A model generated the notes under the pieces. It worked only from the letters and a program-made list of their open reading frames with translations, was not told the DNA's origin and made no database searches. A stretch of DNA of 40,891 nt from Nanobdellota archaeon. Its GTDB lineage: Archaea > Nanobdellota > Nanobdellia > Woesearchaeales > JACPBV01. Below, in pieces: positions 3,261-35,632 of this stretch. The position numbers were made by a program, and so were the translations under genes. The stretch lies in contig JAHJAV010000055.1 of the NCBI GenBank assembly GCA_018813685.1, positions 1 through 40,891 of the forward strand, in the 5' to 3' direction. Position 1 is the stretch's first letter. Each line of letters opens with the position of its first letter.

Positions 3261-4067
3261 ATGATTGTAAAAGAAGAATTTTTAAGCAAATTGAGAAGGT
3301 ACTTCTCGTTAAACCTCTATGAGGTTAAGATATGGACTGCATTATTAAGCAGAGGGGTTTCAACAGCAGGCGAGCTTTCGGATATAGCAGATGTTCCAAG
3401 ATCAAGAAGCTATGATGTTCTTGAGAGTTTAGAGAAGAAAGGATTTGTTGTTATGAAACTTGGAAAGCCAATAAAATATCTGGCTGTTGCCCCACAGGAA
3501 GTTTTAGAGAGAGTAAAGAAGAATGTCAAAGAAGATGCTAAAGGCCAGATTGACAGATTAGAAGAGTTAAAGGGAACAGAAGTCATTGGTGAATTAAACC
3601 AATTGCATACACAAGGAGTAGAGCTTGTAGAGCCTTCTGATTTGAGCGGTTCCTTAAGAGGAAGACATAACCTGTATAATCATTTAGACCTTACAATAAA
3701 GAATGCTGAAGACAGTGTAACCTTGATGACAACTACCCAGGGATTTATAAGAAAAGTAGAGGGGTTGAAGCCAACTTTTGAGAAGATTAAGAAAAGAGGA
3801 GTAAAGATAAGGATTGCTGCTCCAATAACAAAAGATGCTATGAGCGCTGTTGATGAATTAAAAGGAATAGCAGAAGTAAGGCACACTGACAGCAAGGCAA
3901 GGTTTTGCATTGTTGACGGCAAAGAGCTTGTGTTTATGGTTTTAGATGATAAAGAAGTACATCCAACCTATGATGTTGGTGTATGGGTAAACACACCATT
4001 CTTTGCGCAGGCATTAGATACTTTGTTTGACTCTGCCTGGAAAGGGATGAAACCAATAGGGAAGTAA
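3261..4067 (+). CDS. TrmB-family wHTH protein, TrmBL2-like (chromatin/regulator)
   Basis: F.LNLYE...AL...G..TAGELSDIADVPRSRSYDVLESLEKKGF N-terminal TrmB HTH plus C-terminal effector-like domain; 268 aa; strong SD gggggtga. Confidence 0.85.
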   Translation: MIVKEEFLSKLRRYFSLNLYEVKIWTALLSRGVSTAGELSDIADVPRSRSYDVLESLEKKGFVVMKLGKPIKYLAVAPQEVLERVKKNVKEDAKGQIDRLEELKGTEVIGELNQLHTQGVELVEPSDLSGSLRGRHNLYNHLDLTIKNAEDSVTLMTTTQGFIRKVEGLKPTFEKIKKRGVKIRIAAPITKDAMSAVDELKGIAEVRHTDSKARFCIVDGKELVFMVLDDKEVHPTYDVGVWVNTPFFAQALDTLFDSAWKGMKPIGK

Positions 4068-4091
4068 ATTCCTATTTTTTCTTTGTTTTTA

Positions 4092-4107
4092 TAATAAAAT
4101 TTATATA
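4092..4107 (+). promoter_or_regulatory. BRE/TATA promoter of the leader/aromatic operon
   Basis: A-rich taataaaa followed by TTTATATA (4100-4107), about 24 nt upstream of ATG 4132 (leaderless spacing). Confidence 0.6.
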
Positions 4108-4131
4108 TTGGAGCGTATTACCATGTATAAA

Positions 4132-4209
4132 ATGATAGTGCTAGAGAGAATAAATGCTGTTTTGGATGAGTTCTTTCTAGATAGAAGCTGCTACTTTTAC
4201 TTTTGGTAA
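4132..4209 (+). CDS. Putative attenuation leader peptide MIVLERINAVLDEFFLDRSCYFYFW (alternative start 4123)
   Basis: Translated directly from the sequence; 7 of the last 12 codons are Phe/Tyr/Trp; lies directly upstream of the aromatic biosynthesis operon. Confidence 0.75.
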   Translation: MIVLERINAVLDEFFLDRSCYFYFW

Positions 4210-4262
4210 GTCTCTGGGTTAGTCAGCTCAGGAGACTTCATTGTTCAACTTTTTATTCTTTT
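4208..4262 (+). terminator. Hairpin plus U-tract (candidate attenuator/terminator)
   Basis: AAGUCUC-UGGGUU-(AGUC)-AGCUCA-G-GAGACUU (4208-4238), followed by uuuuuauucuuuu (4250-4262). Confidence 0.6.
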
Positions 4263-4295
4263 AAGGCCAAAAAGGAGTAGACAGGATAATACAAA

Positions 4296-4314
4296 GAAAA
4301 AGCTTTGCTTTTTC
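4296..4314. repeat. Short palindromic element (copy 1)
   Basis: gaaaaagc-ttt-gctttttc; 17-nt core identical to 31003-31019. Confidence 0.7.
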
Positions 4315-4378
4315 AAAAAGTTTAAAAAGATAAGGTCATAAAAATGGAATAAGTAAACAAAATCAATAAGGAGAGAAA

Positions 4379-5197
4379 ATGGAACAAAAACTCATAGAAA
4401 AACTCGAAAAGCAGGCATTGCAGATCAGAATGGATGTGCTAGAGATGATAACAGAAGCTAAATCCGGGCATCCTGGCGGGTCGTTGTCTGCTGTTGATAT
4501 AATGACAGTGCTATACTTCCATAAGATGAGGTATAATCCTAAGAAGCCTAAGTGGGAAGATAGAGATAGGTTTGTGCTTAGCAAAGGGCATGCTTGCCCT
4601 GCATTATATGCTTGTTTAGCGAGAAGCGGTTATTTTCCATTGGCTAAATTAAAGACACTCAGAAAGATAGGATCTTGTCTGCAGGGACATCCTGAATCAA
4701 ATAAATGCTCTGGAATAGAGGCATCTACTGGGCCTCTTGGACAGGGATTGAGCTTTGCAAATGGTGTAGGCCTAGCGGGAAAGCTTGATAAGAAAGATTA
4801 CAAAGTGTATGTTATGCTGGGAGATGGTGAAGTGCAGGAAGGAAATATATGGGAAGCTGCAATGTTAGCTGCACATTACAAGCTGAATAATGTGATTGTA
4901 TTTTTAGACCATAACAGATTACAGATCGATGGTGAGCTGAAAGATGTGATGAATATAGAACCGATAAAGGATAAGTTTTCAGCGTTTGGATGGCATACTA
5001 TTGAGATAAACGGACATGATTTCAAAGAGATATTAAATGCACTGGATGAAGCAGATAAGGTAAAAGATAAGCCAATAATGATAATAGCAAATACAATAAA
5101 ATCAAAAGGTGTGGATTATATGGAAAACAAAGCAGAGTGGCATGGAAAGGCCCCTACTCAGGATCAGCTGAAAGAAGCGCTTGCGGAGTTGGTTTAA
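4379..5197 (+). CDS. Transketolase, N-terminal subunit
   Basis: SGHPGGSLS, DRFVLSKGHA, LQGHP, STGPLGQG, TPP motif GDGE..EG..WEA...N. Confidence 0.95.
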   Translation: MEQKLIEKLEKQALQIRMDVLEMITEAKSGHPGGSLSAVDIMTVLYFHKMRYNPKKPKWEDRDRFVLSKGHACPALYACLARSGYFPLAKLKTLRKIGSCLQGHPESNKCSGIEASTGPLGQGLSFANGVGLAGKLDKKDYKVYVMLGDGEVQEGNIWEAAMLAAHYKLNNVIVFLDHNRLQIDGELKDVMNIEPIKDKFSAFGWHTIEINGHDFKEILNALDEADKVKDKPIMIIANTIKSKGVDYMENKAEWHGKAPTQDQLKEALAELV

Positions 5198-6130
5198 ATG
5201 GCAGAGCTGAAAGCTACAAGAGACGGATATGGAGAAGGGCTTGTTGAAGCTGGAAAGAATGAAAGTGTGGTAGCGTTAGATGCTGATCTGGCAGAATCTA
5301 CAAGATCAATAAAGTTCAAGGAGAAATATCCTTTGCGGTTTTTTGATGTGGGTATAGCTGAGCAGAACCTTGTTGCAACAGCTGCTGGCCTTGCTGCATC
5401 TGGGAAGATACCTTTTGCGTCTAGCTTTGCTGTGTTTATTACAGGAAGGGCTTATGACCAGATAAGGCTTAATGCAGGAATCTCGCATCTCAATATGAAA
5501 ATTGTAGGGTCTCATGCCGGTTTATTGACAGGAGAAGATGGTGCTTCACATCAATCGTTAGAAGATATTTCATTGATGAGGGGAATACCTGGTATGGTAG
5601 TGATACAACCTTGTGATTTTGTTGAGGCGAAAAAGGCAACAATCGAGATTGCAAAATATAAGGGGCCTGTCTATCTTAGGTTATCTCGAGGTAAGGTTCC
5701 TGTAATCAATGATGAAAATTATAAGTTTGAGATTGGAAAAGGGATTATGCTGAAGCAGGGAAAGGATATTGCGATAATTGCAACAGGCGCTTTAGTAAAT
5801 GAAGCTTTAATTGCCAGTGATATGCTGAAAGAAAAAGGGATTGGTGCAAGAGTGATAAATATCCATACGATAAAGCCGATTGATAAAGAGATTATAATTA
5901 AGGCTGCTAAAGAAACTGGATGTGTGATAACAGCAGAAGACCACAGCATATACGGCGGATTAGGTAGTGCTGTTGCAGAGATACTTGCTGAGAACTGTCC
6001 AACTAAAATGCACAGGATAGGTGTTAATGATAAATTTGGCGAGTCAGGAGAGCCATCTGAGCTTTACAAGAAATATGGATTAACAGCTGAAGATATAGTT
6101 AAGGCTGCTGAAAAATTGTTAAAAAAATAA
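5198..6130 (+). CDS. Transketolase, C-terminal subunit
   Basis: [37 protein letters not shown]. Confidence 0.95.
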
Positions 6131-6146
6131 ATTAACGGAGGATAAG

Positions 6147-7160
6147 ATGATAATTGTATTAAAACCAAGGGCAAAGGAAAGTGAGGTTAAGGCTGTTGCT
6201 GAAAAGATAAAAAAGATGGGGCTTAAGCCGCATGTTTCAATGGGTGTAGAGAGAACAATAATAGGCGCAATAGGTGATGAATCATTGCTAAAAGAAGATC
6301 AGCTGAAAGCAATGGCTGTTGTAGAAAAGGTATTGCCCATAATGAAACCTTACAAATTAGTTTCAAGAGAGTTTCAAAAAGAAAATACTATAATTAAAGT
6401 AGGGGATGTAAAGATAGGCACAAATGATATTATTGTGATGGCTGGCCCATGCGCTGTTGAGAGTGAAAAACAGGTTATTGAAACTGCTAAAGCTGTAAAG
6501 AAAGCAGGAGGCCATATATTCAGAGGGGGAGCATTCAAACCAAGAACATCCCCATATTCATTCCAGGGAATGGGTGAGGAAGGATTAAAGTTATTAGCAA
6601 AAGCTAGAAATGTAACTGGAATGCCTATTGTGACAGAAGTCATGGATACAGCAGATGTTCCTTTGGTAGCGGATTATGCTGATATACTACAGGTAGGAAC
6701 AAGGAATATGCAGAACTTCAATCTGCTTAAGGCAGTCGGTAAAGTGAACAAGCCTGTAATGCTAAAGAGGGGATTAGCTGCTACATTAAATGAGTTTTTG
6801 ATGGCTGCTGAATATATCATGGCAGAAGGGAACCATAATGTAATATTATGCGAGAGAGGGATAAGAACATTTTGCACACATACAAGAAACACACTGGATT
6901 TGAATATTATTCCCATAATAAAGAAAGAGAGCCACCTTCCAATTATAGTTGATCCTTCGCATGGAACAGGGAATTATTCATTAGTTAGTCCAATGAGCAA
7001 GGCAGCTATTGCTTGCGGAGCAGATGGATTGATGATAGAAGTACATTCAAATCCAGAAGAAGCGACGTCAGATGGCGATCAGAGTTTGACGCCAAAGAGC
7101 TTTGCAAAACTGATGGAAGAGTTAAGGTCAGTTGCAAAAGCAGTAGGAAGAAGGTTATGA
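6147..7160 (+). CDS. aroF: DAHP synthase type I-beta with N-terminal ACT-like regulatory domain
   Basis: [44 protein letters not shown]; about 70-aa N-terminal domain like the Thermotoga enzyme. Confidence 0.95.
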
Positions 7161-8251
7161 TGGAAAAAGTAAGATTGAATCTTAGGAAGGAAATTGACAA
7201 TTCTTATGAGATTTTAATAGATAAGAATCTCTTGAGTAAAGTGCCATCTGATCTGAAGAAGAGCAATGTTGGAAATAGATATTTGATAATAACAGATTCC
7301 AACATAAAGAAATTGTTTGGAGATAATCTGCTTGATTTGATGAGGAAAGAGGGATTGAAGGTAGATATTCTATCCTTTAAGGCAGGAGAGCAGAGCAAGA
7401 ATCTTGAAACGCTTGGGGAATTGTTAAGTGGTGCTCAGAAGTTAGGGCTAGATAGAAAGTCAGCGATAATTGCTCTTGGTGGGGGGGTTGTCGGAGATAT
7501 AGCAGGGTTTGTGGCAGCTACATATATGAGGGGAATAAATTATGCGCAGATTCCAACTTCACTGCTTGCAATGGCTGATTCAAGTGTGGGTGGAAAGGTA
7601 GCTGTAGATTTACCTACTGGAAAGAATATGGCAGGGGCATTTCATCAACCAAAGAAGGTATATATGGATGTGTCTATATTAAATGATCTTCCGCAGAAAG
7701 AAATGATTAATGGATTATCTGAGGTAGTGAAGCATGCTTTTATCATAGATAAAGGGCTTTTTGATTTTATCAATAAGAATCTTAGTAAAATATTGGATAA
7801 AGATTTAGATGTATTAGTTCAATTAGTGAAAAGAAACTGTGAGATAAAGGCAATGATTGTTGAGAAGGATGAAAAAGAAGCTGGACTGAGGAAGATTGTA
7901 AACTATGGGCATACAATAGGCCATGCTATAGAGACAATGACTCATTACAAAAAATATTCACATGGAGAAGCGGTTGCTATGGGGATGGTTGTAGAGGGAT
8001 TGATTGCCAGAAAGATTGGAATGCTTTCTGAAGATGGGTTGAGATTGCAGAATGAGATGATAAAGAAAGTTGGTCTGCCTGTAAAGATCCCTAAACTTGA
8101 AGCTGATAAAGTAATTAATGAATTAAAAAAGGATAAGAAAGTAGTGGGCGGTAAGATAGAATTTGTTTTGTTAGAGGCAATAGGAAAATCAAAGTATGGT
8201 GTGAGTGCCTCTAATGAAATAATAAAAGAGGCTTTAGAGGAAAGTATATGA
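7157..8251 (+). CDS. aroB: 3-dehydroquinate synthase (classical AroB)
   Basis: [50 protein letters not shown]; start ATG overlaps the aroF stop (ATGA 7157-7160). Confidence 0.95.
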
Positions 8252-9684
8252 TAGCTGTGCCGATAGCAGCTTCTATGACAAAGGAAGCTCTAAAAGACAT
8301 GAAAGAGGCCTCTAAATCTGCTGATGTGATTGAGTTAAGGCTTGACTGCATTAAAGATTTAGGGCTAGAGATTTTGTTAGCTAAGCGAATAAAACCAGTG
8401 ATTGTAACTACAAGGAGCAAGGCTGAGGGTGGAAGATCTAATATTAGTGAATCACGTAGAATAAAGTTAATTGAAAAGGCTATTGATCTTGGGGCTGAGT
8501 TTGTTGATGTTGAATTTTCTTTAGGCAGTGAGAAGATAAAAAGGATAATTTCTATAAGGGGCAAGACTAAAGTGATTGTGTCTTATCATAATTTTAAGGG
8601 GACTGATGAAAAAGAGATTATTGCGAAGTATGAAAAGATAAAACGATTAAAGCCAAATGTGATAAAGATAGTTAGTTTTGCAAACTCAATAGATGATAAT
8701 GCTGTTATGCTTAGACTGCTAAAGACTGCTAAAAAGGAAGGAAAGGATCTGATAGCTTTTTGCATGGGTGAGAAAGGTGAAGTGAGCAGGATATTATGCA
8801 ATTTTTTTGGCAGCTTTTTGACATTTGCTTCATTATGCAAGGGAAAGGAGTCTGCTCCAGGCCAGCTGGATGTAAAAACATTGAAGGGCTTGTATAGAAT
8901 AAATGAATTCAGAAATGGAGAAGTTTTTGGGTTAGTGGGAAATCCCGTAAAACAAAGTAAAGGCATATTGATACATAATGATGCTTTTAAGAAACTTGAG
9001 ATGAACAAAGTGTATGTAAATTTTTTAGTTGAAGATTTAAGTAGTTTTGTGAAAAGTTTTAGAAAGTTGATCAAGGGGTTTAGTGTAACTATTCCGTTTA
9101 AGCGTGAGATAATAAAACTTATTGATGGAGTAGATTTAACTGCTGGAAAGATTGGGGCAGTGAATACAGTAATTAATGAAAATGGGAAATTGATAGGGTA
9201 TAATACAGATGTAAAAGGAGCAATCAATGTGATAGAATCAAAGATGAAGATAAAAAACAAAAGAGTCTTGATGATCGGAGCAGGAGGAGTTGCAAGAGCA
9301 ATAGGTTATGGTGTGAAGGGCAAGGGCGGAAGATTGATAATATTGAACAGAACTGTAAGCAGGGCTAAAAGCCTTGGAAATGAACTTAAATGTGAGTATG
9401 GTGGACTAGATAAATTAAATAAGATCGATAAGGTGGATATTATAGTAAATGCAACTTCAATCGGGATGGTTCCAAAGGTTAATGAAATGCCCCTAGGTAA
9501 GGATAAACTTAGGAGAATAATTAAAAAAGGCGCATTGGTTTTTGATTCAGTGTATAATCCAAGAAAGACGAAACTTTTAAAAGAAGCTGAAAAACTAGGA
9601 TGCAATACAGCAGACGGATATGATATGTTCATCAATCAGGCTGATGAGCAATTCAAGCTGTTTACAGGGAGGAGATTAATATGA
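8248..9684 (+). CDS. aroDE: Bifunctional type I dehydroquinate dehydratase / shikimate dehydrogenase (AroD-AroE fusion)
   Basis: N-terminal ELRLD, SYHNF, MGEKG..SR, SAPGQ; C-terminal SVTIPFK, GAVNT, GYNTD, GAGGVARA, NRT. Confidence 0.93.
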   Translation: MIAVPIAASMTKEALKDMKEASKSADVIELRLDCIKDLGLEILLAKRIKPVIVTTRSKAEGGRSNISESRRIKLIEKAIDLGAEFVDVEFSLGSEKIKRIISIRGKTKVIVSYHNFKGTDEKEIIAKYEKIKRLKPNVIKIVSFANSIDDNAVMLRLLKTAKKEGKDLIAFCMGEKGEVSRILCNFFGSFLTFASLCKGKESAPGQLDVKTLKGLYRINEFRNGEVFGLVGNPVKQSKGILIHNDAFKKLEMNKVYVNFLVEDLSSFVKSFRKLIKGFSVTIPFKREIIKLIDGVDLTAGKIGAVNTVINENGKLIGYNTDVKGAINVIESKMKIKNKRVLMIGAGGVARAIGYGVKGKGGRLIILNRTVSRAKSLGNELKCEYGGLDKLNKIDKVDIIVNATSIGMVPKVNEMPLGKDKLRRIIKKGALVFDSVYNPRKTKLLKEAEKLGCNTADGYDMFINQADEQFKLFTGRRLI

Positions 9685-10961
9685 AATTAGTTGTAGAAAA
9701 AACAGAGAAACTTGAAGGAGAGATTACTATTCCTGGCTCTAAATCACATACAATAAGGGCTGTAATAATCGCTTCATTGGCAGAAGGGATTTCAAAGATA
9801 AAAAATCCTTTAAAGTCAGATGACACAATGGCTGCTGTAAATGCTTGCACTGCTTTTGGCGCAAAGATAAATACAGATAATGAAAGTGAGTGGGTAATAT
9901 CAGGATTTAATCATAATCCGCAGAAGCCAGAAGGAGTTATTAATATGATGAATTCAGGAACTTCTCTTAGGCTGATTTCAGGTGTAATAGCTGCTCTTTG
10001 TGATTTTGAGATTGAGTTAGATGGTGATGCTTCATTAAGGGCAAGGCCAATGCAGCCTTTGCTTAAATCACTTAATCAATTAGGTGCAGAAGCTGTGTCT
10101 GTCAGCAATAATGGATACTGCCCAATAAAGATAAAAGGGAAGATGATTGGTGGAGATACTGAAGTAGTTGGAATGTCTTCCCAGTATATTTCCAGTTTGC
10201 TGATAGCATGTCCGCTGCTTGAAGAAGATACTGAGATAAGGGTTGTTAAGCCAAATGAAATTCCTTACATACGAATAACAATGAAATGGTTGGATGAGCA
10301 AGGCATCAAGTATGAAGTGTCTGAGGATTTTACTAAGTTTAAAGTTTTTGGAAAGCAAAGGTACAAATCTTTTGAGAAATCAATTCCAGCAGACTGGAGC
10401 TCAGCAGCATTTCCTTTAGTGGGGGCTGCAATTGTTCCATCAAATGTCTTGTTGAAAGGATTGGATATTAATGATGTTCAAGGAGATAAAGCTATTATTG
10501 ATTATCTTAAGAAAATGGACGCTGACGTTAGTATTGAAGGAGATGGAATAAGGATAAAAGGCAAGGCTTTGAAAGGATGTGAGCTTGATTTGAATGCAAC
10601 TCCTGATGCACTGCCTGCTTTAGCTGTACTGGGATGTTTTGCAGAAGGCACAACTGTCTTGTTTAATGTTCCACAAGCCAGGATAAAGGAAACAGACAGA
10701 ATAAAAGTAATGACAGAAGAGCTTGAAAGAATGGGTGCTGATATAAAAGAGAGGGATGAGGGATTGATAATACATAAAAGTGAGTTGAAAGGAAATAAAG
10801 TAAGAGGCCATAGTGATCATAGGATAGTTATGGCATTAAGCTTAGCTGGGATGATATCAACTGGAAAGACAGAGATAACAACTGCAGAGTCTATTGGTGT
10901 AACTTTTCCAGATTATGCTAAAAGTATGAAGGCCTTAGGGGCTAAAATCGAGGTGGTTTAG
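9681..10961 (+). CDS. aroA: EPSP synthase
   Basis: PGSKSHTIRA, NSGTSLR, SL..RPM, SSQYISSLL, RIKETDRI, DHRIVMA. Confidence 0.96.
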   Translation: MKLVVEKTEKLEGEITIPGSKSHTIRAVIIASLAEGISKIKNPLKSDDTMAAVNACTAFGAKINTDNESEWVISGFNHNPQKPEGVINMMNSGTSLRLISGVIAALCDFEIELDGDASLRARPMQPLLKSLNQLGAEAVSVSNNGYCPIKIKGKMIGGDTEVVGMSSQYISSLLIACPLLEEDTEIRVVKPNEIPYIRITMKWLDEQGIKYEVSEDFTKFKVFGKQRYKSFEKSIPADWSSAAFPLVGAAIVPSNVLLKGLDINDVQGDKAIIDYLKKMDADVSIEGDGIRIKGKALKGCELDLNATPDALPALAVLGCFAEGTTVLFNVPQARIKETDRIKVMTEELERMGADIKERDEGLIIHKSELKGNKVRGHSDHRIVMALSLAGMISTGKTEITTAESIGVTFPDYAKSMKALGAKIEVV

Positions 10962-10962
10962 T

Positions 10963-12141
10963 ATGATGGGAAATAGTTTTGGAAGGTTGTTTAGGGTTAC
11001 AACTTGCGGTGAGTCTTATGGGATAGGGAAAGGTTCTGGATTATCAGTTATAGTAGATGGAGTGCCGCCTGGACTTAAGATTACAAAAGAAGATATACAG
11101 AAGGAGCTTGATAAAAGAAAGCCTGGAGTGGGTAAGTTGAACAGCCCTAGAAAAGAGACAGACCAATGCGCAATATTTGCAGGAATTGGGCAGGAAGGTG
11201 TTACAACAGGGGCTCCATTAGGAATCATAATCTATAATGTAGATACTCAAAAAGTGCATATTGAGCAGTATAGATCCTATAAGGATATATTTAGGCCAGG
11301 CCATGCAACCTATCCATTCTTTATGAAATATGGAGAGTCACAGGATTGGTGCGGTGCAGGAAGAGCATCTGGAAGAGAAACTGTAGCTAGAGTAGCAGGC
11401 GGAGCTATTGCAAAGATCATATTGGAAAGAGAAGGGATTGAGATAGTCTCATATACCAAAGAATGTATGGGGATAAAAACAAAAGAAATGGGTTTTGATG
11501 AGATAAAAAAGAATCGTGGAAAAAATGAGATAAACTGCCCTGATCTTGAAGCTGCTAAAAAAATGGAAGATGCTGTGTTAAAGATAAAGGGTGAAGGAGA
11601 TACAGCAGGAGGAGTAATAGAGCTTATTGCAAGAGGTGTTCCCCCTGGTTTAGGAGAGCCTGTCTTTGACAAGCTGAATGCAACAATAGCTCATGCTCTT
11701 GCTTCAATCGGAGCAGTTAAAGGAGTAGAGTTTGGAGCTGGATTTGGTGTAGGTAATATGAAAGGCTCTGAGAATAATGATCAGCCATATTTGACTAAAG
11801 ATGGAAAAGTTAGGTTCAAGACTAATAATGCCGGAGGATTTTTAGGCGGCATGACTAATGGAGAAGAGATTGTAGCTAGGATAGCTGTAAAGCCAACTCC
11901 TACAATATCAAAAAAACAGACTTCAATAAATATGAAGACAATGAAAGAAGAAGTGCTTTCACCGATAACAAGAAGAGATCCTACATTAGTTGGAAGGCTT
12001 TGGGCAGTGGCAGAGGCAATGATGGCAATAGCTATACTTGATTCATTGTACATGGCTAAAGCATATGATAGTATGGCTAGATTGGATAAGAAATGGATTA
12101 AGCTTAAAGAGTTAATAAAATGGACAAAGACAAGCCATTGA
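10963..12141 (+). CDS. aroC: Chorismate synthase (divergent motifs)
   Basis: RPGHA, GRASGRETVARVAGGA, GLGEPVFDKL, VKGVEFGAGF, TNNAGG.LGG, KPTPTI. Confidence 0.92.
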   Translation: MMGNSFGRLFRVTTCGESYGIGKGSGLSVIVDGVPPGLKITKEDIQKELDKRKPGVGKLNSPRKETDQCAIFAGIGQEGVTTGAPLGIIIYNVDTQKVHIEQYRSYKDIFRPGHATYPFFMKYGESQDWCGAGRASGRETVARVAGGAIAKIILEREGIEIVSYTKECMGIKTKEMGFDEIKKNRGKNEINCPDLEAAKKMEDAVLKIKGEGDTAGGVIELIARGVPPGLGEPVFDKLNATIAHALASIGAVKGVEFGAGFGVGNMKGSENNDQPYLTKDGKVRFKTNNAGGFLGGMTNGEEIVARIAVKPTPTISKKQTSINMKTMKEEVLSPITRRDPTLVGRLWAVAEAMMAIAILDSLYMAKAYDSMARLDKKWIKLKELIKWTKTSH

Positions 12142-12971
12142 TAGGAATAATAGGCGGAACAGGGCAGATGGGCCAGTGGTTCAAGAGATTCTTTGAGAGT
12201 AAAGGCTATAAAGTTGTTATAGCCAGCAGAAAGACCAGCATTAGTATACAGGAGTGCGCTTCTAAATGCGATATTGTGATAGTGAGTGTTCCGATAGATA
12301 TTACAGTTAAAACAATAAAAGAGATAGGGCCATTGATAAAGGAAGATGGATTGTTTATGGATTTAACTTCTATAAAGAAGGAGCCTGTTGAAGCTATGCT
12401 GAAATACAGCAAATGCGCAGTTATAGGAACACATCCTGTTTTTGGGCCTTCTGTAAAGACTATAAATAACCAGACAGTGGTATTGTGCCCTGCAAGGCCA
12501 AAGAAATGGCTTGAGTTTGTAAAAGATATATTTGAGAAGAATGGCGCAATTGTTAAGGTCACAACTCCTGAGAAGCATGACAAGATGATGTCTATCATAC
12601 AGGGATTAACACATTTTTCAACTATATGTGTAGCTCATGCTTTGAAAAAATTAGGAGTAGATGTTGAAGAAAGTATGCAGTATACTTCTCCAATCTATAA
12701 ATTAAGGATGGATATGGTCGGAAGGTTATTGAATCAGAATCCTGCATTATATGCAGATATAGCTATGCTTAACAGCGAGAACAAGAGATCAATAGAGGAA
12801 TATATCAAATCTACTAGAGAGCTGATAGGGATAATAAAAAGGAAGGATAGAGATGATTTTATCACATTCTTCAAAGAAGGCTCTAATTTTCTTGGAGATT
12901 TCAAAAAAGAAGCAACAGAGTATTCAGATTATGTTATAGAGCAATTGGTCAAGAAAGGGAGGCTAAGATGA
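12120..12971 (+). CDS. tyrA: Prephenate dehydrogenase (no chorismate mutase domain)
   Basis: GIIGGTGQMG Rossmann motif, DLTSIK, HPVFGP, EKHDKMMSIIQGLTHF. Confidence 0.9.
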   Translation: MDKDKPLIGIIGGTGQMGQWFKRFFESKGYKVVIASRKTSISIQECASKCDIVIVSVPIDITVKTIKEIGPLIKEDGLFMDLTSIKKEPVEAMLKYSKCAVIGTHPVFGPSVKTINNQTVVLCPARPKKWLEFVKDIFEKNGAIVKVTTPEKHDKMMSIIQGLTHFSTICVAHALKKLGVDVEESMQYTSPIYKLRMDMVGRLLNQNPALYADIAMLNSENKRSIEEYIKSTRELIGIIKRKDRDDFITFFKEGSNFLGDFKKEATEYSDYVIEQLVKKGRLR

Positions 12972-13777
12972 AGATCGCTACATTAGGTCCAGCAGGAACA
13001 TTCAGCCATGAGGCTTTACTTAAACGGGATAGGAAAGTTGAGATAATATTCAAGAATACTGTATGGGATGTTTTTGAAGCAGTGGATAATGATGAAGCTG
13101 AAGAAGGCATAGTTCCTATTGAGAATTCTGTTTCTGGCTCGATAGGGCTTACATTAGATGCACTTATGGAGTTTAAACTAAATATAATTGGAGAGATAAT
13201 ACTTCCTGTAAAGCATAATCTTGTTGGGTATGATGGAATAAAGGACATTAAAGTACTGTATGTACATCCTGTAACGTATGAGCAGTGTGAGAAGTTTATT
13301 AGGAAGAATATTAATGGAGTAAAGGTTATACAGACGAGCTCTAATGCTGCTTCTGCAGAGATCATTTCAAAAGAGAAGGATAAGACCAAGGCAGCGATTG
13401 TGCCAAGAGAAGCTATAGAGATATATAAATTAAAGGTAATAAAAAATGATATACAGGATAATAAGTTTAATGTTACAAGATTCGTTGTATTAAGCAAAAG
13501 TGATGGGAAGAAAAGTTCACGTGAGAGAACTTCTATTGCGATATATCCTCAGGCAGACAAGCCAGGACTGTTGTATTCTTTATTAGGCATATTTGCAAAG
13601 AGAAATATAAACCTGACTAAGATAGAGTCAAGACCGTCAAAAGGAAAGCTAGGTGATTATATCTTTTTTATAGATATGCAAGGCAATAAAGAAGATGAAA
13701 AGATAAAGGAAGCTTTTAAGATTATAGAAGAGGATTTCTTCCTTAAGGTTCTAGGATCTTACCCAAGAGAGTATTGA
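12968..13777 (+). CDS. pheA: Prephenate dehydratase with ACT domain
   Basis: LGPAGTFSHEA, VPIENS..G, NVTRF, DKPGLL, INLTKIESRP, LGSYP. Confidence 0.95.
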   Translation: MKIATLGPAGTFSHEALLKRDRKVEIIFKNTVWDVFEAVDNDEAEEGIVPIENSVSGSIGLTLDALMEFKLNIIGEIILPVKHNLVGYDGIKDIKVLYVHPVTYEQCEKFIRKNINGVKVIQTSSNAASAEIISKEKDKTKAAIVPREAIEIYKLKVIKNDIQDNKFNVTRFVVLSKSDGKKSSRERTSIAIYPQADKPGLLYSLLGIFAKRNINLTKIESRPSKGKLGDYIFFIDMQGNKEDEKIKEAFKIIEEDFFLKVLGSYPREY

Positions 13778-13779
13778 AT

Positions 13780-15300
13780 ATGGATGAGGAAAGATTAGCA
13801 CAGACATTGCATAATTATGAGAGAAAAGTTTTGAGTGTTCTTGATAAAGAGAGTACTGTAAGTGAGATTTCTTCTAAGAGCGGTTTAAAGGATATAGAAG
13901 TGATGAGAGGATTGCAATGGTTAGAGAATAAAGGCATTGTAAAGTTAAGGGAGGATGTGAAAGAGATAGTTGAATTGGATTCTAATGGTGAGAAGTATAG
14001 GGAAGGGGGGCTGCCTGAAAGAAGGTTTCTTAAGTTTGTTAAGAAAGATACTCCTGTTTCTGAGATTTTAAAAGAAGCAAAACTAAGCAATGAAGAGGTT
14101 AGTGTATGTTTAGGTGTGTTAAAGGGGAAGGCTGCTATAGCCATTAGGAAGGATAAGGAATTGATGGTTAGTATATTACCTCAGGGTGAGAAGATACTAC
14201 AGAAAGAAAGTTTAGAAGAGCTGTTTCTTAAGAAGAAATTTCCGATTTTGTTGAGTGAGCTTACAGATGAAGATAAATTTGCTCTGGATAGTTTAAGAAA
14301 AAGAAAGAATATTGTGAAAGTAGAGACTAGGAAAATAAGGAAAGCTGAGCTGACTGAATTTGGAAGGAAGTTAAGTAAGTCTGGAATAAAGTTTGAAGAG
14401 ACTTATGATAGGTTGACTCCTGCTATGGTTAGGGATGGTTCCTGGGCTAACAAAAAATTTAGAAGGTATGATGTAAAGATAAATGTTCCTTTAGTTTTTG
14501 GCGGCAAGAAACAACACTATGCAAGGTTTTTAGATGATGTTAGGGGTAAGTTTATCTCTTTGGGTTTTAGTGAGATGTTCGGGCCTATTGTAGAGACAGA
14601 ATTCTGGGATATGGATGCTTTATTTATGCCTCAGTTTCATTCTGCAAGAGATATACATGCTGCTTATTATGTGAAAGAGCCAAAGTATGGGAAACTTGAT
14701 AATTACATTGTAGAAAGGGTTAAAGAGTCTCATGAAATAGGGAAAGGAACAATAAGCAAAGGATGGCAGTATAAGTTTGATGTTAACAAGACTAAACAAT
14801 TGATATTAAGGACGCAGGGAACTGCTTTGTCTGCAAGGATGCTTGCTTCTAAAGAGTTGAAGATTCCAGGAAAGTATTTTGGGATTGCACGCTGTTTCAG
14901 GCCGGATGTTGTTGATGCTACACATAGTGCTGATTTTAATCAAGTAGAAGGGATTGTGATTGAAGAAGGTCTTAATTTCAGGCATCTTAAAGGATTGTTG
15001 AAGATGTTTGCAGAGGAATTTGCAGAGACAGACCAGATAAAGATAACTCCTGCTTATTTTCCATTTACAGAGCCGTCTGCTGAGCTGCATGCAAAGCATC
15101 CTGAGCTTGGGTGGATAGAGTTAGGAGGTTCTGGTATATTCAGACCTGAACTTGTAAAACCTTTGTTAGGGAGAGAGATATCTGTTTTAGCATGGGGGCT
15201 AGGGATTGATAGGTTAGCTATGTTTAAATTAGGGATAAAAGATATAAGGGAATTATTTTCACATAATTTAGATTTTTTGAAAGATGTTAAGGTAGTTTAA
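13780..15300 (+). CDS. pheS: Phenylalanyl-tRNA synthetase alpha subunit (archaeal type)
   Basis: W..DALFMPQ.HSARD, RCFRPD..DATH..DFNQVEG, YFPFTEPSAE, WGLGIDRLAM; ATG at 13780. Confidence 0.95.
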   Translation: MDEERLAQTLHNYERKVLSVLDKESTVSEISSKSGLKDIEVMRGLQWLENKGIVKLREDVKEIVELDSNGEKYREGGLPERRFLKFVKKDTPVSEILKEAKLSNEEVSVCLGVLKGKAAIAIRKDKELMVSILPQGEKILQKESLEELFLKKKFPILLSELTDEDKFALDSLRKRKNIVKVETRKIRKAELTEFGRKLSKSGIKFEETYDRLTPAMVRDGSWANKKFRRYDVKINVPLVFGGKKQHYARFLDDVRGKFISLGFSEMFGPIVETEFWDMDALFMPQFHSARDIHAAYYVKEPKYGKLDNYIVERVKESHEIGKGTISKGWQYKFDVNKTKQLILRTQGTALSARMLASKELKIPGKYFGIARCFRPDVVDATHSADFNQVEGIVIEEGLNFRHLKGLLKMFAEEFAETDQIKITPAYFPFTEPSAELHAKHPELGWIELGGSGIFRPELVKPLLGREISVLAWGLGIDRLAMFKLGIKDIRELFSHNLDFLKDVKVV

Positions 15301-15301
15301 A

Positions 15302-16963
15302 ATGCCAACAATAAAATTTTCATTAAAGGACTTGCAGAATTTGGTTGGAAAGAAGCTTGAGATTGATGAAGTTTCTAAGCTAGTTGAGTATGGCAAGGGT
15401 GAGTTAGAGGGTTATGATAAGGATTCTGATGAAGTTAGTGTGGAGTTTGGAGATACAAACTTGCCTTATTTATGGTCTATTGAGGGATTTGCTCGGTTGG
15501 TTAATGGTGTGTTGGGGGGTTGTAAGGGCATACCTAAGATAGAAATTAAAAAAAGTGATTATAAATTAATTGTTGATGAATCTGTTAAATATGTAAGGCC
15601 ATATATTGCTGCTTTTGTAGCTAAAGGGCATAAGGTAGATGATTATCTGATAAAGCAGATGATACAATTGCAGGAGAAGTTGTGCGAGAGTTATGGGCGT
15701 CGGAGGTTGAAGGTAGCGATTGGTGTTTATTCTTATGATAAAATAAAGTTTCCTGTTCATTACAAAGCAACTTCGCCAGAGTCTGTTAAGTTTATACCTT
15801 TAGAGTTTAAGAAAGAGATGACCCAACAGGAGATTCTGGAAGAGCATCCAACTGGAAAAGAGTATGCATGGATATTAAAGGATGCTAAGAAATACCCTAT
15901 ATTGGTTGATAGTGCTGATTCTGTGTTGAGCTTTCCGCCTATAATAAACTCTAATTTAACTGGGAGGGTTGTTTCGGGAGAAGAGCATCTTTTTGTAGAG
16001 TGTACTGGAATAGAGCTTGAGCCTTTGCTTTTGGCTATGAATATAATGGCGTATGCTTTTTATGATAGAGGATTTGAGATATATTCTGTTGATGTTAAGT
16101 ATGAAAATAAGAAAATTACAACTCCCCTTTTGTTTAATGATAAGATAAAGATTACTCTGGAGCAGGTCAAATCACTTTTAGGTTTAGAACTTAAGAATTC
16201 TGAGATTAAAATGTTGCTTGAGAAGATGGGTTATGATGTAGGTAGTGATTTGAATGTTAAGATTCCATCTTATAGGAAGGATATACTTCATCCTAATGAT
16301 GTTATAGAAGATATAGGAATTGCTTATGGTTATGATAAATTTGATGAGATTCCATTGACCTCATATACTGTTGGAGAGACTTCTTTGCTGGTTAAGTTTA
16401 GAAATAATATAAGGGAGATGCTTATCGGATTAGGGTTCCAGGAGGTTTTGAGTCCGATATTATCCAATAAGGCTGTGCTTTACGATAAGATGAATATTCC
16501 TGATTTTGGCACTATAGAACTTACTAATTTCATGTCTGAGACTTATTCGTGCGTAAGGAGTTGGCTGTTGCCTATGCTTATTGATTTTTTATCTAAGAAT
16601 AAGCATTTTGAGTATCCACAAAGGGTTTTTGAGCAGGGGCTAGTTACTGTGCACAAAGGTGATTCTGTTGTGGATTATGAGAGAATTGCTGTTGTTTCTG
16701 CTAATGATAAAGCTGATTATACAGAGATAAGGCAGGTTATAGATTATTTGTTTAGGATGTTGGATGTTTCTTATAGTGTTGAGGACTGTGAGCATGATTC
16801 TTTTATTCCTGGAAGGGTCGGAAGAGTTATTGTAAATGGAAAGAAAGTAGCTTATATTGGGGAGATATCACCTAAGGTTCTTAATAATAATGGGATAGAA
16901 GTTCCTGTTGTAGGGCTAGAGCTGAATATTTCTGAGTTGTTTGAAATTGTTGGAAAGAACTAG
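15302..16963 (+). CDS. pheT: Phenylalanyl-tRNA synthetase beta subunit (archaeal type)
   Basis: MPTI start, VRPYI, QLQEKL, LSFPPIINS, PSYRKDILH..DVIEDI.IAYGY, SFIPGR. Confidence 0.95.
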   Translation: MPTIKFSLKDLQNLVGKKLEIDEVSKLVEYGKGELEGYDKDSDEVSVEFGDTNLPYLWSIEGFARLVNGVLGGCKGIPKIEIKKSDYKLIVDESVKYVRPYIAAFVAKGHKVDDYLIKQMIQLQEKLCESYGRRRLKVAIGVYSYDKIKFPVHYKATSPESVKFIPLEFKKEMTQQEILEEHPTGKEYAWILKDAKKYPILVDSADSVLSFPPIINSNLTGRVVSGEEHLFVECTGIELEPLLLAMNIMAYAFYDRGFEIYSVDVKYENKKITTPLLFNDKIKITLEQVKSLLGLELKNSEIKMLLEKMGYDVGSDLNVKIPSYRKDILHPNDVIEDIGIAYGYDKFDEIPLTSYTVGETSLLVKFRNNIREMLIGLGFQEVLSPILSNKAVLYDKMNIPDFGTIELTNFMSETYSCVRSWLLPMLIDFLSKNKHFEYPQRVFEQGLVTVHKGDSVVDYERIAVVSANDKADYTEIRQVIDYLFRMLDVSYSVEDCEHDSFIPGRVGRVIVNGKKVAYIGEISPKVLNNNGIEVPVVGLELNISELFEIVGKN

Positions 16964-33360: not shown

Positions 33361-33630
33361 ATGCAAAGGGGGATGGTAACTGCTATATCATTATTGAAAT
33401 CTAGTGAATATCGCTTAAAGATAGTAAAAGCTATAGGAAAAGATACAGTAACTCCTTCTGAAATTGCGGAAAAAATAGGAATACGTTTAAATCATGTAAG
33501 TACGTTTTTAAAAGAATTAAAAGAGAATAATTTAGTAAAATGCTTAAATGAAGATACAAGAAAAGGCAGATTATATGAATTGACAGAATTAGGACAAAAT
33601 GCAATCGACAAGCTTACAAATGGAAAATAG
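33361..33630 (+). CDS. Winged-HTH regulator, putative RM controller (alternative start 33373)
   Basis: S.YR.KI..AI....TPSEIA...GI..NHVS..L.EL....LV.C...RKGR.Y.LT..G; overlaps the MTase start. Confidence 0.8.
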   Translation: MQRGMVTAISLLKSSEYRLKIVKAIGKDTVTPSEIAEKIGIRLNHVSTFLKELKENNLVKCLNEDTRKGRLYELTELGQNAIDKLTNGK

Positions 33631-34888
33631 AATAAAATTTAAGGATGAAAGCTGGGACTTTCGCAATGATTTTACTAAGTATAGTAATCATGGCTTTCAT
33701 ACTTACCCAGCTATGATGATTCCCCAAGTGGCAAGAAGATTAATCCAAATGTATGGAAAAGATAAAGAGGTTCTCTTAGATCCTTTTATGGGTTCAGGAA
33801 CAGCGCTTTTAGAAGCAAAACTACATAAAAATTTCAAAAAAGCTTATGGTATAGACATAAATCCTCTTGCTCTTTTAATTTCAAAAGTAAAAACTACGCC
33901 AATTAATCCAGAAATTCTAAAAGAAGAGTATAATCAATTAATTTCTAGGTGTAATACAGATAAAAAAGCAGTTAATTTCAGAGAGAAAGAAATTAAAAAA
34001 CCAGATTTCTATAATCTTGAATTCTGGTTTAAACCAGAAGTGATAATTGATTTAGCAATAATCAAAGAAAGTATAAATAGAATTGAAGATAAAGATATAA
34101 AAGATTTTTTTCTGGTTGTTTTCTCTGAAACTGTAAGAAATGTATCCAACACTAGAAATGGGGAATATAAACTTTATAGGATGAATCGATCGATGATGGA
34201 TAAACATAAACCTAATACTTTTGAAGTATTTAAAGGCAAAGCATCAAAGAATATTGTTGGAATGGAAGAATATTTTAAAATATATAATCCAAAGTGTCAA
34301 GTTAATATTCTAGCAGAAGATACGAGAAATTTGACATCTATTCCCACGAATAGTGTTGATTTAATTGTAACCTCCCCACCCTATGGAGATAGTCGAACAA
34401 CAGTAGCTTATGGTCAGTTTTCAAGATTAGGTTTACAATGGTTAGATTATGGTAAAGATGAAGTTTCGAATATTGATAAAGTAAGTTTGGGCGGTATACC
34501 TACTAAAGATTTGCATAATTGGTTAGATTCTCCAACTTTAAAGAAAACATTGGATGAAATTTCTAAAATTGATACTTGCAGGGCAAAAGATGTTTTAAGC
34601 TTTTATGTGGATTTTAATAAGTGTGTTCGGGAATTACATAGAGTTACTAAAAAAGGTGCATTTATGTGCTTGGTGGTAGGTAATAGAACTGTAAAAGGCG
34701 TTCAAATTCCAACAGATGAAATAATATTAGAATTATTCCAATCAAAAAATCATTATAAGCACCACAATACATTTATTAGAAATATACCCCATAAAAGAAT
34801 GCCCAAATTAAATTCTCCTACTAACATAGTCGGTAATCATGCTGTAACTATGAATGAAGAATGGATAGTTATTATAGAGAAACAATAA
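33620..34888 (+). CDS. DNA methyltransferase, probably N4-cytosine, alpha class (M.MvaI-like)
   Basis: H.YPAMMIP, motif I DPFMGSGT N-terminal, motif IV TSPPY C-terminal. Confidence 0.9.
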   Translation: MENRIKFKDESWDFRNDFTKYSNHGFHTYPAMMIPQVARRLIQMYGKDKEVLLDPFMGSGTALLEAKLHKNFKKAYGIDINPLALLISKVKTTPINPEILKEEYNQLISRCNTDKKAVNFREKEIKKPDFYNLEFWFKPEVIIDLAIIKESINRIEDKDIKDFFLVVFSETVRNVSNTRNGEYKLYRMNRSMMDKHKPNTFEVFKGKASKNIVGMEEYFKIYNPKCQVNILAEDTRNLTSIPTNSVDLIVTSPPYGDSRTTVAYGQFSRLGLQWLDYGKDEVSNIDKVSLGGIPTKDLHNWLDSPTLKKTLDEISKIDTCRAKDVLSFYVDFNKCVRELHRVTKKGAFMCLVVGNRTVKGVQIPTDEIILELFQSKNHYKHHNTFIRNIPHKRMPKLNSPTNIVGNHAVTMNEEWIVIIEKQ

Positions 34889-35632
34889 TCAAATTTCTTC
34901 AACTTTGAACACTTTAGGAATGTTGTTTTTTAAAACTCTGAAACCCGAACCATGGTCGTGTGTTTTTCCTTTACTTGAACCAGTACCATACACCCCTATT
35001 CTTATATCGTAAACAATTAATCCTTCTTTTACAAATTGAATGAATTTTTGAAAAGATAACTCTTTTAACAAAGTAGCTTCTTTAAAATGGAATAACTCTT
35101 TTCCATTTTCTACTTTTGCATCTGCATTTATGAAAGCAATATGTTCGCATTTGGTTTCAATAATAGATTTTAGGTCTGCAAAGGTGTAATAAATTGAGTT
35201 GTCAATTATTTTATCTGTCGTTAGATTTTTTACCAAGATAACTATTCTTTCCGCCTTTTCATCAACTTCTAGCTTAAATCCTATCTTTGAAAAGAATGTG
35301 TTGAACTTTGTAGCTGAGATTGTAGTATGTAGTATCTTCATATTATTTTTATCTGGATGGCCATAAGTTTCTCTGAGATAGGAATTTGCACCTTGAGGAT
35401 TTGATGGGGATTTTGTAAATAATGTTAGCATACTTTTTGATAAATCCCTTTTTGATTTGATTTCTAAGATTCCTTGATAATCTGCTAAAGAACTATTGTT
35501 TTCTACTATGCCGATTACATCTTCAAAAGTTTTACCTATCCCAGTATTATGTGTTCTATGAGATTCAATAAATCCTTTTGATTTTATAATAGAAAAATCT
35601 TTTTTAAAACCTTGTAATACTTTAGCATCCAT
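34889..35632 (-). CDS. Type II restriction endonuclease, MvaI/BcnI family
   Basis: TGIGKTFED..GI.ENN...AD...LEIKS.R....LTLFTK.P ... HDHGSGFR; convergent with the MTase. Confidence 0.85.
   Translation of the reverse strand: MDAKVLQGFKKDFSIIKSKGFIESHRTHNTGIGKTFEDVIGIVENNSSLADYQGILEIKSKRDLSKSMLTLFTKSPSNPQGANSYLRETYGHPDKNNMKILHTTISATKFNTFFSKIGFKLEVDEKAERIVILVKNLTTDKIIDNSIYYTFADLKSIIETKCEHIAFINADAKVENGKELFHFKEATLLKELSFQKFIQFVKEGLIVYDIRIGVYGTGSSKGKTHDHGSGFRVLKNNIPKVFKVEEI

Follow-up and report, generated by a model that had tools for sequence, protein, structure and literature searches.

Ribosome-mediated attenuation is a textbook bacterial mechanism, and the pheL-pheA, pheM-pheST and trpL systems of Escherichia coli are bacterial leader-peptide attenuators of aromatic operons; leader control in bacteria may also be Rho-dependent, as in the tna and mgtA/corA types. 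The locus considered here is archaeal. It lies on contig JAHJAV010000055.1 (assembly GCA_018813685.1) of a member of the Nanobdellota, and the whole stretch of DNA that was analysed, 40,891 nt in length, is referred to below as the window. In front of an operon for tyrosine and phenylalanine biosynthesis, the window carries a short open reading frame (ORF) that ends in a run of aromatic codons, a hairpin at the stop codon of this ORF (hairpin B), and a purine-rich downstream segment (the swing strand) that can pair with the aromatic codons to form a longer-range helix, here termed the outer helix.

With the bacterial attenuators this locus shares a short ORF with codons for the regulated amino acids upstream of its cognate operon, the genes of phenylalanyl-tRNA synthetase (PheRS) being included here, and the use of these codons as one strand of alternative pairings, between which the position of a ribosome would choose. 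It differs from them, in the window, in its archaeal host, in an ORF that is probably leaderless, in having no GC-rich hairpin that abuts a U-run, and in a codon helix that is nested around a constant hairpin and whose swing strand is transcribed after the U-tract. The likeness to Rho-dependent control is that the state of translation would set the exposure of a factor-binding segment (here putatively the U-tract), with termination further downstream; unlike Rho, aCPSF1/FttA is a nuclease and not a helicase, and a candidate U-tract of at least five residues is present in two of the eight leaders described below.

Leaderless short ORFs with polycysteine tracts act by translational attenuation in mycobacteria, as outlined in a preprint (bioRxiv 10.1101/834739). 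According to that outline, a leaderless sensory first cistron (probably leaderless in the case of the window) with consecutive codons for the amino acid of the operon is common to both systems, as is an ORF RNA that pairs with a downstream purine-rich sequence of Shine-Dalgarno (SD) type in a duplex that ribosome arrest blocks or, in the window, would block; unlike the mycobacterial case, the paired SD-like strand in the window is not the ribosome site of the transketolase gene (tkt), and only the leader of one related locus, L004, fits this arrangement. The archaeal regulators of aromatic genes Tar (TK0271) and TrpY act on DNA palindromes, as stated in the relevant sections of PMC6737238. A regulator gene beside or inside the aro cluster is a feature of those systems, so far as the same sections describe them, and also of the present one, in which a TrmB-family gene is found at all eight leader loci; the element described here, unlike theirs, is tied to an ORF and shows specificity for the sense strand.

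Full-text literature searches, whose coverage did not extend to supplements, retrieved no archaeal leader-peptide attenuator, and neither 'attenuat' nor 'leader peptide' occurs in a 2026 review of termination (PMC13675443). The covariance models of Rfam 15 gave 0 matches at gathering score over the whole window, and lenient thresholds returned only chance-level matches (E 0.5-0.7) for positions 4050-4420 of the window and 3560-4060 of L004. As far as the literature searches show, the archaeal family of aromatic-codon leaders is undescribed.

The aromatic-codon leader and its stop-adjacent hairpin

There is good support for a conserved archaeal leader that combines an ORF of aromatic codons with a hairpin placed at the stop of this ORF. 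In a comparative sample of 81 sequences (80 loci and the window), an aromatic ORF followed by a stop-adjacent hairpin was identified in eight, namely the window and loci L001, L002, L003, L004, L017, L027 and L028, and these eight leaders constitute all of the comparative data. Their ORFs have 19-26 codons, with 4-6 aromatic codons among the last seven, and in each of them hairpin B starts either inside the stop codon or 0-1 nt past it, with stem sequences that differ. The leader is located before tktN at six of the eight loci and before the gene for 3-deoxy-D-arabino-heptulosonate 7-phosphate (DAHP) synthase in L027 and L028, where the N-terminal leader peptide is unrelated to the others and the leader stands about 160-200 nt upstream of the SD-led synthase gene. 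The closest transketolase loci (69-71% identity) belong to metagenome-assembled genomes labelled Candidatus Woesearchaeota. At L016 (3880-4005) and L030 (3690-4010), where a TrmB-family gene is likewise followed by tkt (in L030 with a chorismate-mutase-like ORF between the two), no aromatic leader ORF is present, and the leader must therefore have been gained or lost within the group.

Regulation of the TrmB mRNA by the leader was ruled out, as the leaders of L017, L027 and L028 stay with the aro genes and not beside the TrmB gene. A short aromatic ORF in L014 (40-90) is followed, by eye, by a tRNA-like gene and is not an aro leader, and weak matches to the signature in L008, L024, L031, L045 and L051 were set aside; all of them have TTG starts and none adjoins the matched tkt.

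In the window the stop codon of the leader ORF is the TAA at 4207-4209, and this is the sole intergenic ORF in the 40.9 kb that begins with ATG, has 10-45 codons and contains at least five aromatic residues in six. Its ATG at 4132 aligns with the leader starts of four relatives, whereas the in-frame ATG at 4123 is not conserved, and the only three indels inside the ORF in the five-sequence alignment are each of 3 nt, so that the reading frame is kept. The ORF is directly upstream of, and co-oriented with, the operon for the Tyr/Phe pathway and PheRS, the position that an attenuator takes before its cognate operon. In L004, L017, L027 and L028 a box equivalent to the TATA-like box P1 of the window precedes the leader ATG by 22-26 nt, and five of the eight leaders thus have a TATA-like box of their own at this distance, a spacing that suggests a leaderless transcript; as judged from this arrangement, the message of the leader ORF is probably leaderless. 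All five of these leaders carry a TTACC motif between their box and their ATG (4108-4131 in the window), and it could be due to chance, an initiator element or a half-site for a regulator.

Hairpin A, which lies within the ORF (-15.7 kcal/mol, z -4.71), and hairpin B (-13.9 kcal/mol, z -3.75) were each equalled by 0 of 200 shuffles. The RNAalifold consensus of five leaders recovers both, with compensatory changes in 8 of 23 pairs; in hairpin A, one UUU-to-UUC change is met by an A-to-G change in the opposite arm. In a MAFFT alignment of hairpin B from the eight loci, the 3' arms of L017, L027 and L028 were out of register and no pairs were counted there, and the statement on covariation rests on the five-sequence consensus and on per-locus folds. 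The 3' arm of hairpin A coincides with conserved E-F-F-L-D codons (4141-4180 in the window, with its counterpart in L001-L003), and the conservation of the peptide at this place may therefore be driven by the RNA; hairpin A could be a pause or synchronising hairpin.

The plus-strand version of hairpin B is the more stable one at all eight loci, 14 of its 80 stem pairs being G:U, and this preference, together with that of the outer duplexes for the sense strand (five of five, see below), argues for an element that acts as RNA and not as a DNA palindrome or operator. It is extremely improbable that the inverted repeats are instead DNA operators of the neighbouring TrmB-family regulator. Such a role would be in line with the position of hairpin B 5' of the second TATA-like box, P2, and with Thermococcales Tar, which binds a palindrome upstream of the TFB recognition element (BRE) and TATA box in aro promoters, as given in the relevant sections of PMC6737238; apart from the strand preference and the G:U pairs, however, the stem sequences vary by locus, and the outer helix is bulged, with arms 60 nt apart.

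Two further observations were made around hairpin B. Its loop and 3' arm can pair just downstream in L002 (3890-3920), L003 (715-745), L027 (4245-4285) and L028 (7010-7050), an alternative that resembles the classical 2:3/3:4 pairing and is distinct from the outer helix; an A-to-G change in L027/L028 keeps a G:U pair in it. In the window, a mini-ORF of seven codons that starts with TTG and includes four Phe codons extends across the U-tract region (4241-4264), 6 nt downstream of a GGAG in the 3' arm of hairpin B (4231-4234). This mini-ORF is not conserved in relatives and is probably a by-product of T-richness.

The outer helix in the window

The initial annotation of this DNA had paired 4188-4206 with 4267-4284 in a helix of about 17 bp, and the pair listing bears this out pair by pair, with 17 bp, two G:U pairs and two bulges. 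The outermost segment consists of 3 bp (C4188-G4284, then U-A and G-C) and is separated by the bulged A4281 from a middle segment of 8 bp, C4191-G4280 to U4198-A4273, which includes U4196:G4275 and U4197:G4274; after the bulged A4199 and C4200, the inner segment of 6 bp extends from U4201-A4272 to G4206-C4267. The 5' arm comprises the final nucleotide of an AGC codon and the codons TGC TAC TTT TAC TTT TGG. The arms are about 60 nt apart, and the helix was also correctly said to bracket the inner hairpin and the U-tract, as it encloses 4208-4238 and 4250-4263. The geometry supports the proposal that its formation requires C-Y-F-Y-F-W codons that no ribosome covers, and its topology is, as had been suggested, unlike the bacterial 1:2/2:3/3:4 scheme, the helix being nested around the inner hairpin and not an alternative to it.

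The outer helix is present in the minimum free energy (MFE) structures of 4100-4390 and of 4180-4290, and in folds of a growing transcript anchored at its 5' end it belongs to the MFE structure for every 3' end at 4285 or later. Its mean pair probability is 0.95 in 4180-4290, 0.89 in 4132-4300, 0.46-0.60 in longer contexts and 0.51 in 4130-4380. For duplex tests, a control segment of 27 nt (4183-4209, the last eight sense codons and the stop) was paired with the downstream RNA, which gave -18.6 kcal/mol. This energy was matched or bettered by 28 of 1000 and 27 of 1000 dinucleotide shuffles of the target in two runs, and it was reached by the true query in 34 of 1008 real plus-strand windows of equal length. 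No other 27-nt window of the leader ORF pairs with the downstream RNA as well as the control codons do, the 17 others giving -10.6 to -15.7 kcal/mol, and the z-scores of whole-region folds are modest (-1.47, with 15 of 200 shuffles as good; -1.83, with 9 of 200; -2.15, with 9 of 200). The pairing described for the window is thus confirmed, and the outer helix is real and favoured over most controls, yet marginal when taken singly.

Comparable helices in related leaders

Because the spacers differ too much between the leaders for alignment-based covariation, the control codons of each leader were tested against their own downstream RNA, with dinucleotide shuffles and real windows as controls. 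A helix between the codons and a downstream purine-rich segment that encloses hairpin B was identified in five of the eight leaders (window, L004, L017, L027 and L028). The duplex of L004 (-23.2 kcal/mol) was equalled by 0 of 1000 shuffles and 0 of 119 real windows, and that of L017 (-21.4 kcal/mol) by 4 of 1000 shuffles and 0 of 338 real windows; the L017 helix consists of 12 contiguous bp, beginning 10 nt past hairpin B, and the z-score of the whole domain is -3.78 (0 of 200). The signals of L028 (132 of 1000 shuffles and 7 of 192 real windows as good) and L027 (144 of 1000 and 7 of 98) are weak, and the helices of the two are at homologous positions, with differences in the 3' arm that retain 15-17 bp. 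A Fisher combination over these four lineages, from which the window was excluded, gives p ~1.5e-4. All five outer helices have a 5' arm that reaches to the stop codon and directly adjoins hairpin B, and all five are stronger on the sense strand. An upstream substitute partner for the control codons of L001-L003 was rejected, being no better than shuffles (379, 276 and 81 of 500 as good, respectively); the same test in L004 gave 18 of 500.

In L004 the partner of the codons consists of the SD sequence and AUG of tkt, and 0 of 94 other start regions pair with them as well; the predicted unpaired probability of the tkt site rises from 0.06 to 0.66 with a ribosome footprint on the control codons. 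This duplex is what would be expected of translational attenuation, in which free codons mask the ribosome site of tkt and stalling unmasks it, and which would make 4267-4284 of the window a decoy. As an account of the window such a mechanism is very improbable. A minor state in which 4194-4206 pairs with the tkt SD (4363-4375) does exist there, at a probability of about 0.1, but the control codons and the tkt start region form a duplex of only -6.5 kcal/mol, which 86 of 93 other start regions equal or better, and the start site of tktN is open in both states, its predicted unpaired probability changing from 0.89 to 0.97 and from 0.64 to 0.72 when the codons are blocked. With a duplex this weak and a site this open, masking of the window's own tkt start by the control codons was ruled out. 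The idea that 4267-4284 is a relic of a tkt start was rejected as well: box P2 and its flanks are common to the window and L004, and this P2-like box and the sequence following it are colinear between the two and lie downstream of 4267-4284.

Between its leader and tkt, L004 carries a GC-rich element of 145 nt (within 3796-3958) with 20-nt terminal inverted repeats (3806-3825 and 3930-3949), flanked by perfect 9-nt direct repeats (3796-3804 and 3950-3958). In sequence it looks like an insertion of the miniature inverted-repeat transposable element type, and its removal would bring the arms of the L004 helix about 154 nt closer.

A possible swing-strand switch and its alternatives

In the window the swing strand has a second partner, the U-tract, with which it forms hairpin E, and the outer helix and hairpin E are mutually exclusive. 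When 4185-4220 is held single-stranded in folds of 4130-4380, hairpin E has a probability of 0.88 instead of 0.43, and the U-tract is unpaired with a probability of 0.16 instead of 0.47, so that blocking the codons shifts the balance between the two folds. The initial annotation had expected the outer helix in the ensemble of this region, where it is indeed found, but had not foreseen hairpin E. As the tkt site is open in both states, the exposure of the U-tract is the only thing in the window that changes with ribosome occupancy. The tract includes a run that qualifies as oligo-U (at least five U), T5 at 4250-4254, and a further T4 at 4260-4263; it begins 11 nt beyond the end of hairpin B (4238 to 4250), and a consensus scan found no plus-strand terminator composed of a GC-rich hairpin and a U-run in 3900-4500. 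According to passages of PMC13675443, U-tracts elicit a response from archaeal RNA polymerase as well as from aCPSF1, and aCPSF1/FttA recognises U-rich RNA while its action is on complexes that lie further downstream; on the strength of these passages the U-tract is a candidate terminator.

It is possible, and in our estimate only somewhat short of an even chance, that the outer helix is one conformation of a selected ribosome-sensing swing-strand switch in the leader of an archaeal aromatic operon. The swing strand 4267-4284 would be shared between the aromatic codons, with which it would form the outer helix stacked on hairpin B, and the U-tract, with which it would form hairpin E. With Tyr, Phe or Trp plentiful, a ribosome translating the ORF would clear the codons, the outer helix would form and the U-tract would remain single-stranded; a ribosome stalled at hungry aromatic codons would prevent the outer helix, and the swing strand would then cover the U-tract. 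Transcripts from the leader promoter would accordingly either end early or be cleaved at an exposed U-tract, or else run into tkt-aro-pheST. The gated step may be a later, factor-dependent recognition of U-rich RNA of the aCPSF1/FttA type, or decay of the leader RNA.

A number of observations weigh against such a switch. Many of them are points in favour of chance complementarity, that is, of a helix that serves no function, whatever the leader ORF and hairpin B may do, which we regard as unlikely but as deserving serious consideration. Codons for Tyr and Phe are rich in U and C, and the sense strand, with GC and AT skews that are positive along the operon, is purine-rich and has many SD-like runs. 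In this setting it is not unusual to find, within 170 nt, a helix of 17 bp that includes bulges and G:U pairs. Arbitrary 27-nt queries in the same geometry reach -18.6 kcal/mol at 275 of 5809 plus-strand and 144 of 5809 minus-strand positions of the window. In the relatives, arbitrary queries from the same locus reach the energy of L004 at 178 of 3369 positions and that of L017 at 189 of 3430 (about 5%), a much weaker result than with a fixed query. On average, pairing by these arbitrary queries seems to be stronger than pairing by the control segment: for L004 the mean of the background is -15.7 with arbitrary queries vs -12.5 with the true query on shuffles. The expectation that the helix would surpass dinucleotide-shuffled controls holds in that it beats most of them, but with 27-34 per 1000 true-query controls doing as well it is, taken alone, only a 3% (about 1-in-30) event. 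It also occupies only about half of the ensemble, being nearly isoenergetic with hairpin E in free RNA (0.51 vs 0.43), and the weak pairing of the codons with the true tkt SD is a sign of promiscuity.

The comparison between loci is divided in the same way. No helix beyond shuffles was found in L001 (910 of 1000 shuffles and 316 of 338 real windows as good), L002 (296 of 1000 and 74 of 368) or L003 (188 of 1000 and 141 of 211), which are the leaders that align best with the window, and the place and sequence of the 3' partner differ in every lineage, so that no covariation can be counted for the outer helix. The helix is therefore conserved only in the sense that analogues exist in L004, L017, L027 and L028. 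What argues against chance is the enrichment among these independent leaders, above all L004 and L017, which persists in the combined probability without the window, and the constant arrangement of the 5' arm between stop codon and hairpin B, with the sense strand favoured each time.

Other difficulties concern the output of the proposed switch. Hairpin E is weak (-9.5 kcal/mol, z -1.74, 11 of 200 shuffles as good), and the scheme as a whole is absent from L001-L003. The open tkt site leaves the window without the masking predicted for L004. As transcription reaches the U-tract before the 3' arm, the outer helix cannot gate intrinsic termination at that tract, and since a run of at least five U is present only in the window and L004 (L002, L003, L017, L027 and L028 have no such run after the hairpin), an output through the U-tract cannot be general. 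The second, ribosome-gated structural state put forward in the initial annotation is thus upheld as regards its geometry, its nested topology and its recurrence in five of eight leaders, which is significant for the family as a whole, but it is marginal alone, not universal, and opposed by a rival fold at about 1:1. Ribosome gating of the outer helix is plausible, and its regulatory output in the window is unproven.

It is also conceivable, though quite improbable, that the leader is an autonomous short unit that ends at the U-tract, with tkt transcribed from P2, the two arms rarely on one RNA, and sensing by way of promoter interference or the TrmB-family regulator, for example. Box P2 lies between the helix and tkt, and tkt may therefore not depend on leader transcripts; if P2 is a promoter, the leader may modulate only read-through transcripts, and at worst its arms would rarely share an RNA. 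P2-like boxes precede the tkt ATG by a constant 22 nt in L001-L003, in an almost fully conserved block, and by 23-25 nt in L017 and L004. The T5 and T4 runs precede the 3' arm, a TrmB-family gene is upstream at all eight loci, and known archaeal aromatic regulation proceeds via transcription factors in the account given by the relevant sections of PMC6737238. However, P2 in the window is 50 nt from the ATG and not 22-25 nt, no P2-like second box is present in L027 and L028 with their SD-led downstream gene, five of the leaders have no run of at least five U after the hairpin, and the pairing of codons with the tkt start in L004 is sensible only on read-through RNA.

Feature coordinates and gene neighbourhood

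Table 1. Features of the leader region and operon in the window (positions in nt; a dot marks a feature assigned to neither strand)
Feature	Position	Strand	Basis or remark
TATA-like box P1 for the leader ORF (putative promoter)	4100..4107	+	24 nt before ATG 4132
Leader ORF, 25 codons, ends C-Y-F-Y-F-W-stop	4132..4209	+	Start alignment, in-frame indels
Hairpin A within the leader ORF (arms 4141-4151, 4170-4180)	4141..4180	+	Folding, shuffles, RNAalifold
Outer helix, 5' arm (aromatic control codons)	4188..4206	+	Pair listing, duplex energies
Hairpin B, starting inside the stop codon	4208..4238	+	Folding, shuffles, recurrence in leaders
Alternative hairpin E (4252-4262:4271-4281 and 4240-4246:4284-4290)	4240..4290	+	Folding
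U-tract (T5-ATTC-T4), putative signal for archaeal termination; pairs with the swing strand in hairpin E	4250..4263	+	Sequence
Outer helix, 3' arm (swing strand; purine-rich, SD-like)	4267..4284	+	Pair listing, duplex energies, constrained folding
Hairpin C (A5GC-UUU-GCU5), terminator-like in both orientations	4296..4314	.	Between swing strand and P2
TATA-like box P2, possible separate tkt promoter	4321..4328	+	Inference from sequence; a good SD sequence follows
SD sequence (GGAGAG) and start codon of tktN	4370..4381	+	Sequence
Operon: tktN, tktC, DAHP synthase, 3-dehydroquinate (DHQ) synthase, DHQ dehydratase (DHQase)-shikimate dehydrogenase (DH), 5-enolpyruvylshikimate 3-phosphate (EPSP) synthase, chorismate synthase, prephenate dehydrogenase, prephenate dehydratase, PheRS alpha, PheRS beta	4379..16963	+	Pfam, ORF coordinates

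The operon downstream of the leader (Table 1) is 12.6 kb long and co-oriented, with a split transketolase and a fused DHQase-shikimate dehydrogenase. Its final two genes encode the alpha and beta subunits of PheRS (13774-16963), and pheST of E. coli is also preceded by a leader of Phe codons. The TrmB-family regulator gene is located upstream of the leader at 3261-4067. Hairpin C has an energy of -7.6 kcal/mol (z -1.96, 8 of 200 shuffles as good), and the terminator consensus scan flags it on the minus strand. Elsewhere the window carries archaeal genes, among them those for an eRF1-family protein, L19e, L32e, S4e, SUI1 and the large primase subunit, and its region of lowest GC content (0.30) contains a restriction-modification pair at 33599-35632, an N4/N6 DNA methylase on the plus strand and a MvaI/BcnI-family endonuclease on the minus strand.

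Implications for archaeal gene regulation

Taken at their widest, these results may represent the first archaeal family of leader-peptide attenuators, in DPANN archaea of the Woesearchaeota type, in which the codon run is one strand of a ribosome-gated helix that was rewired in different lineages, so that in L004 the codons would mask the ribosome site of the first gene and in the window the codons and an oligo-U tract would be rivals for a swing strand, stalling hiding the U-rich signal; we offer this as a tentative interpretation about which doubt prevails. The leaders provide a testable case of whether archaea set gene expression by ribosome position, of how attenuation would work where the polymerase needs no hairpin to terminate at oligo-U, and of the ease with which such switches are rewired between transcriptional and translational output. 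The locus also indicates that genome-reduced DPANN archaea retain regulated biosynthesis of aromatic amino acids, and, if the proposed switch is true, a U-rich signal hidden by ribosome stalling would be an archaeal counterpart of Rho-dependent leader control.

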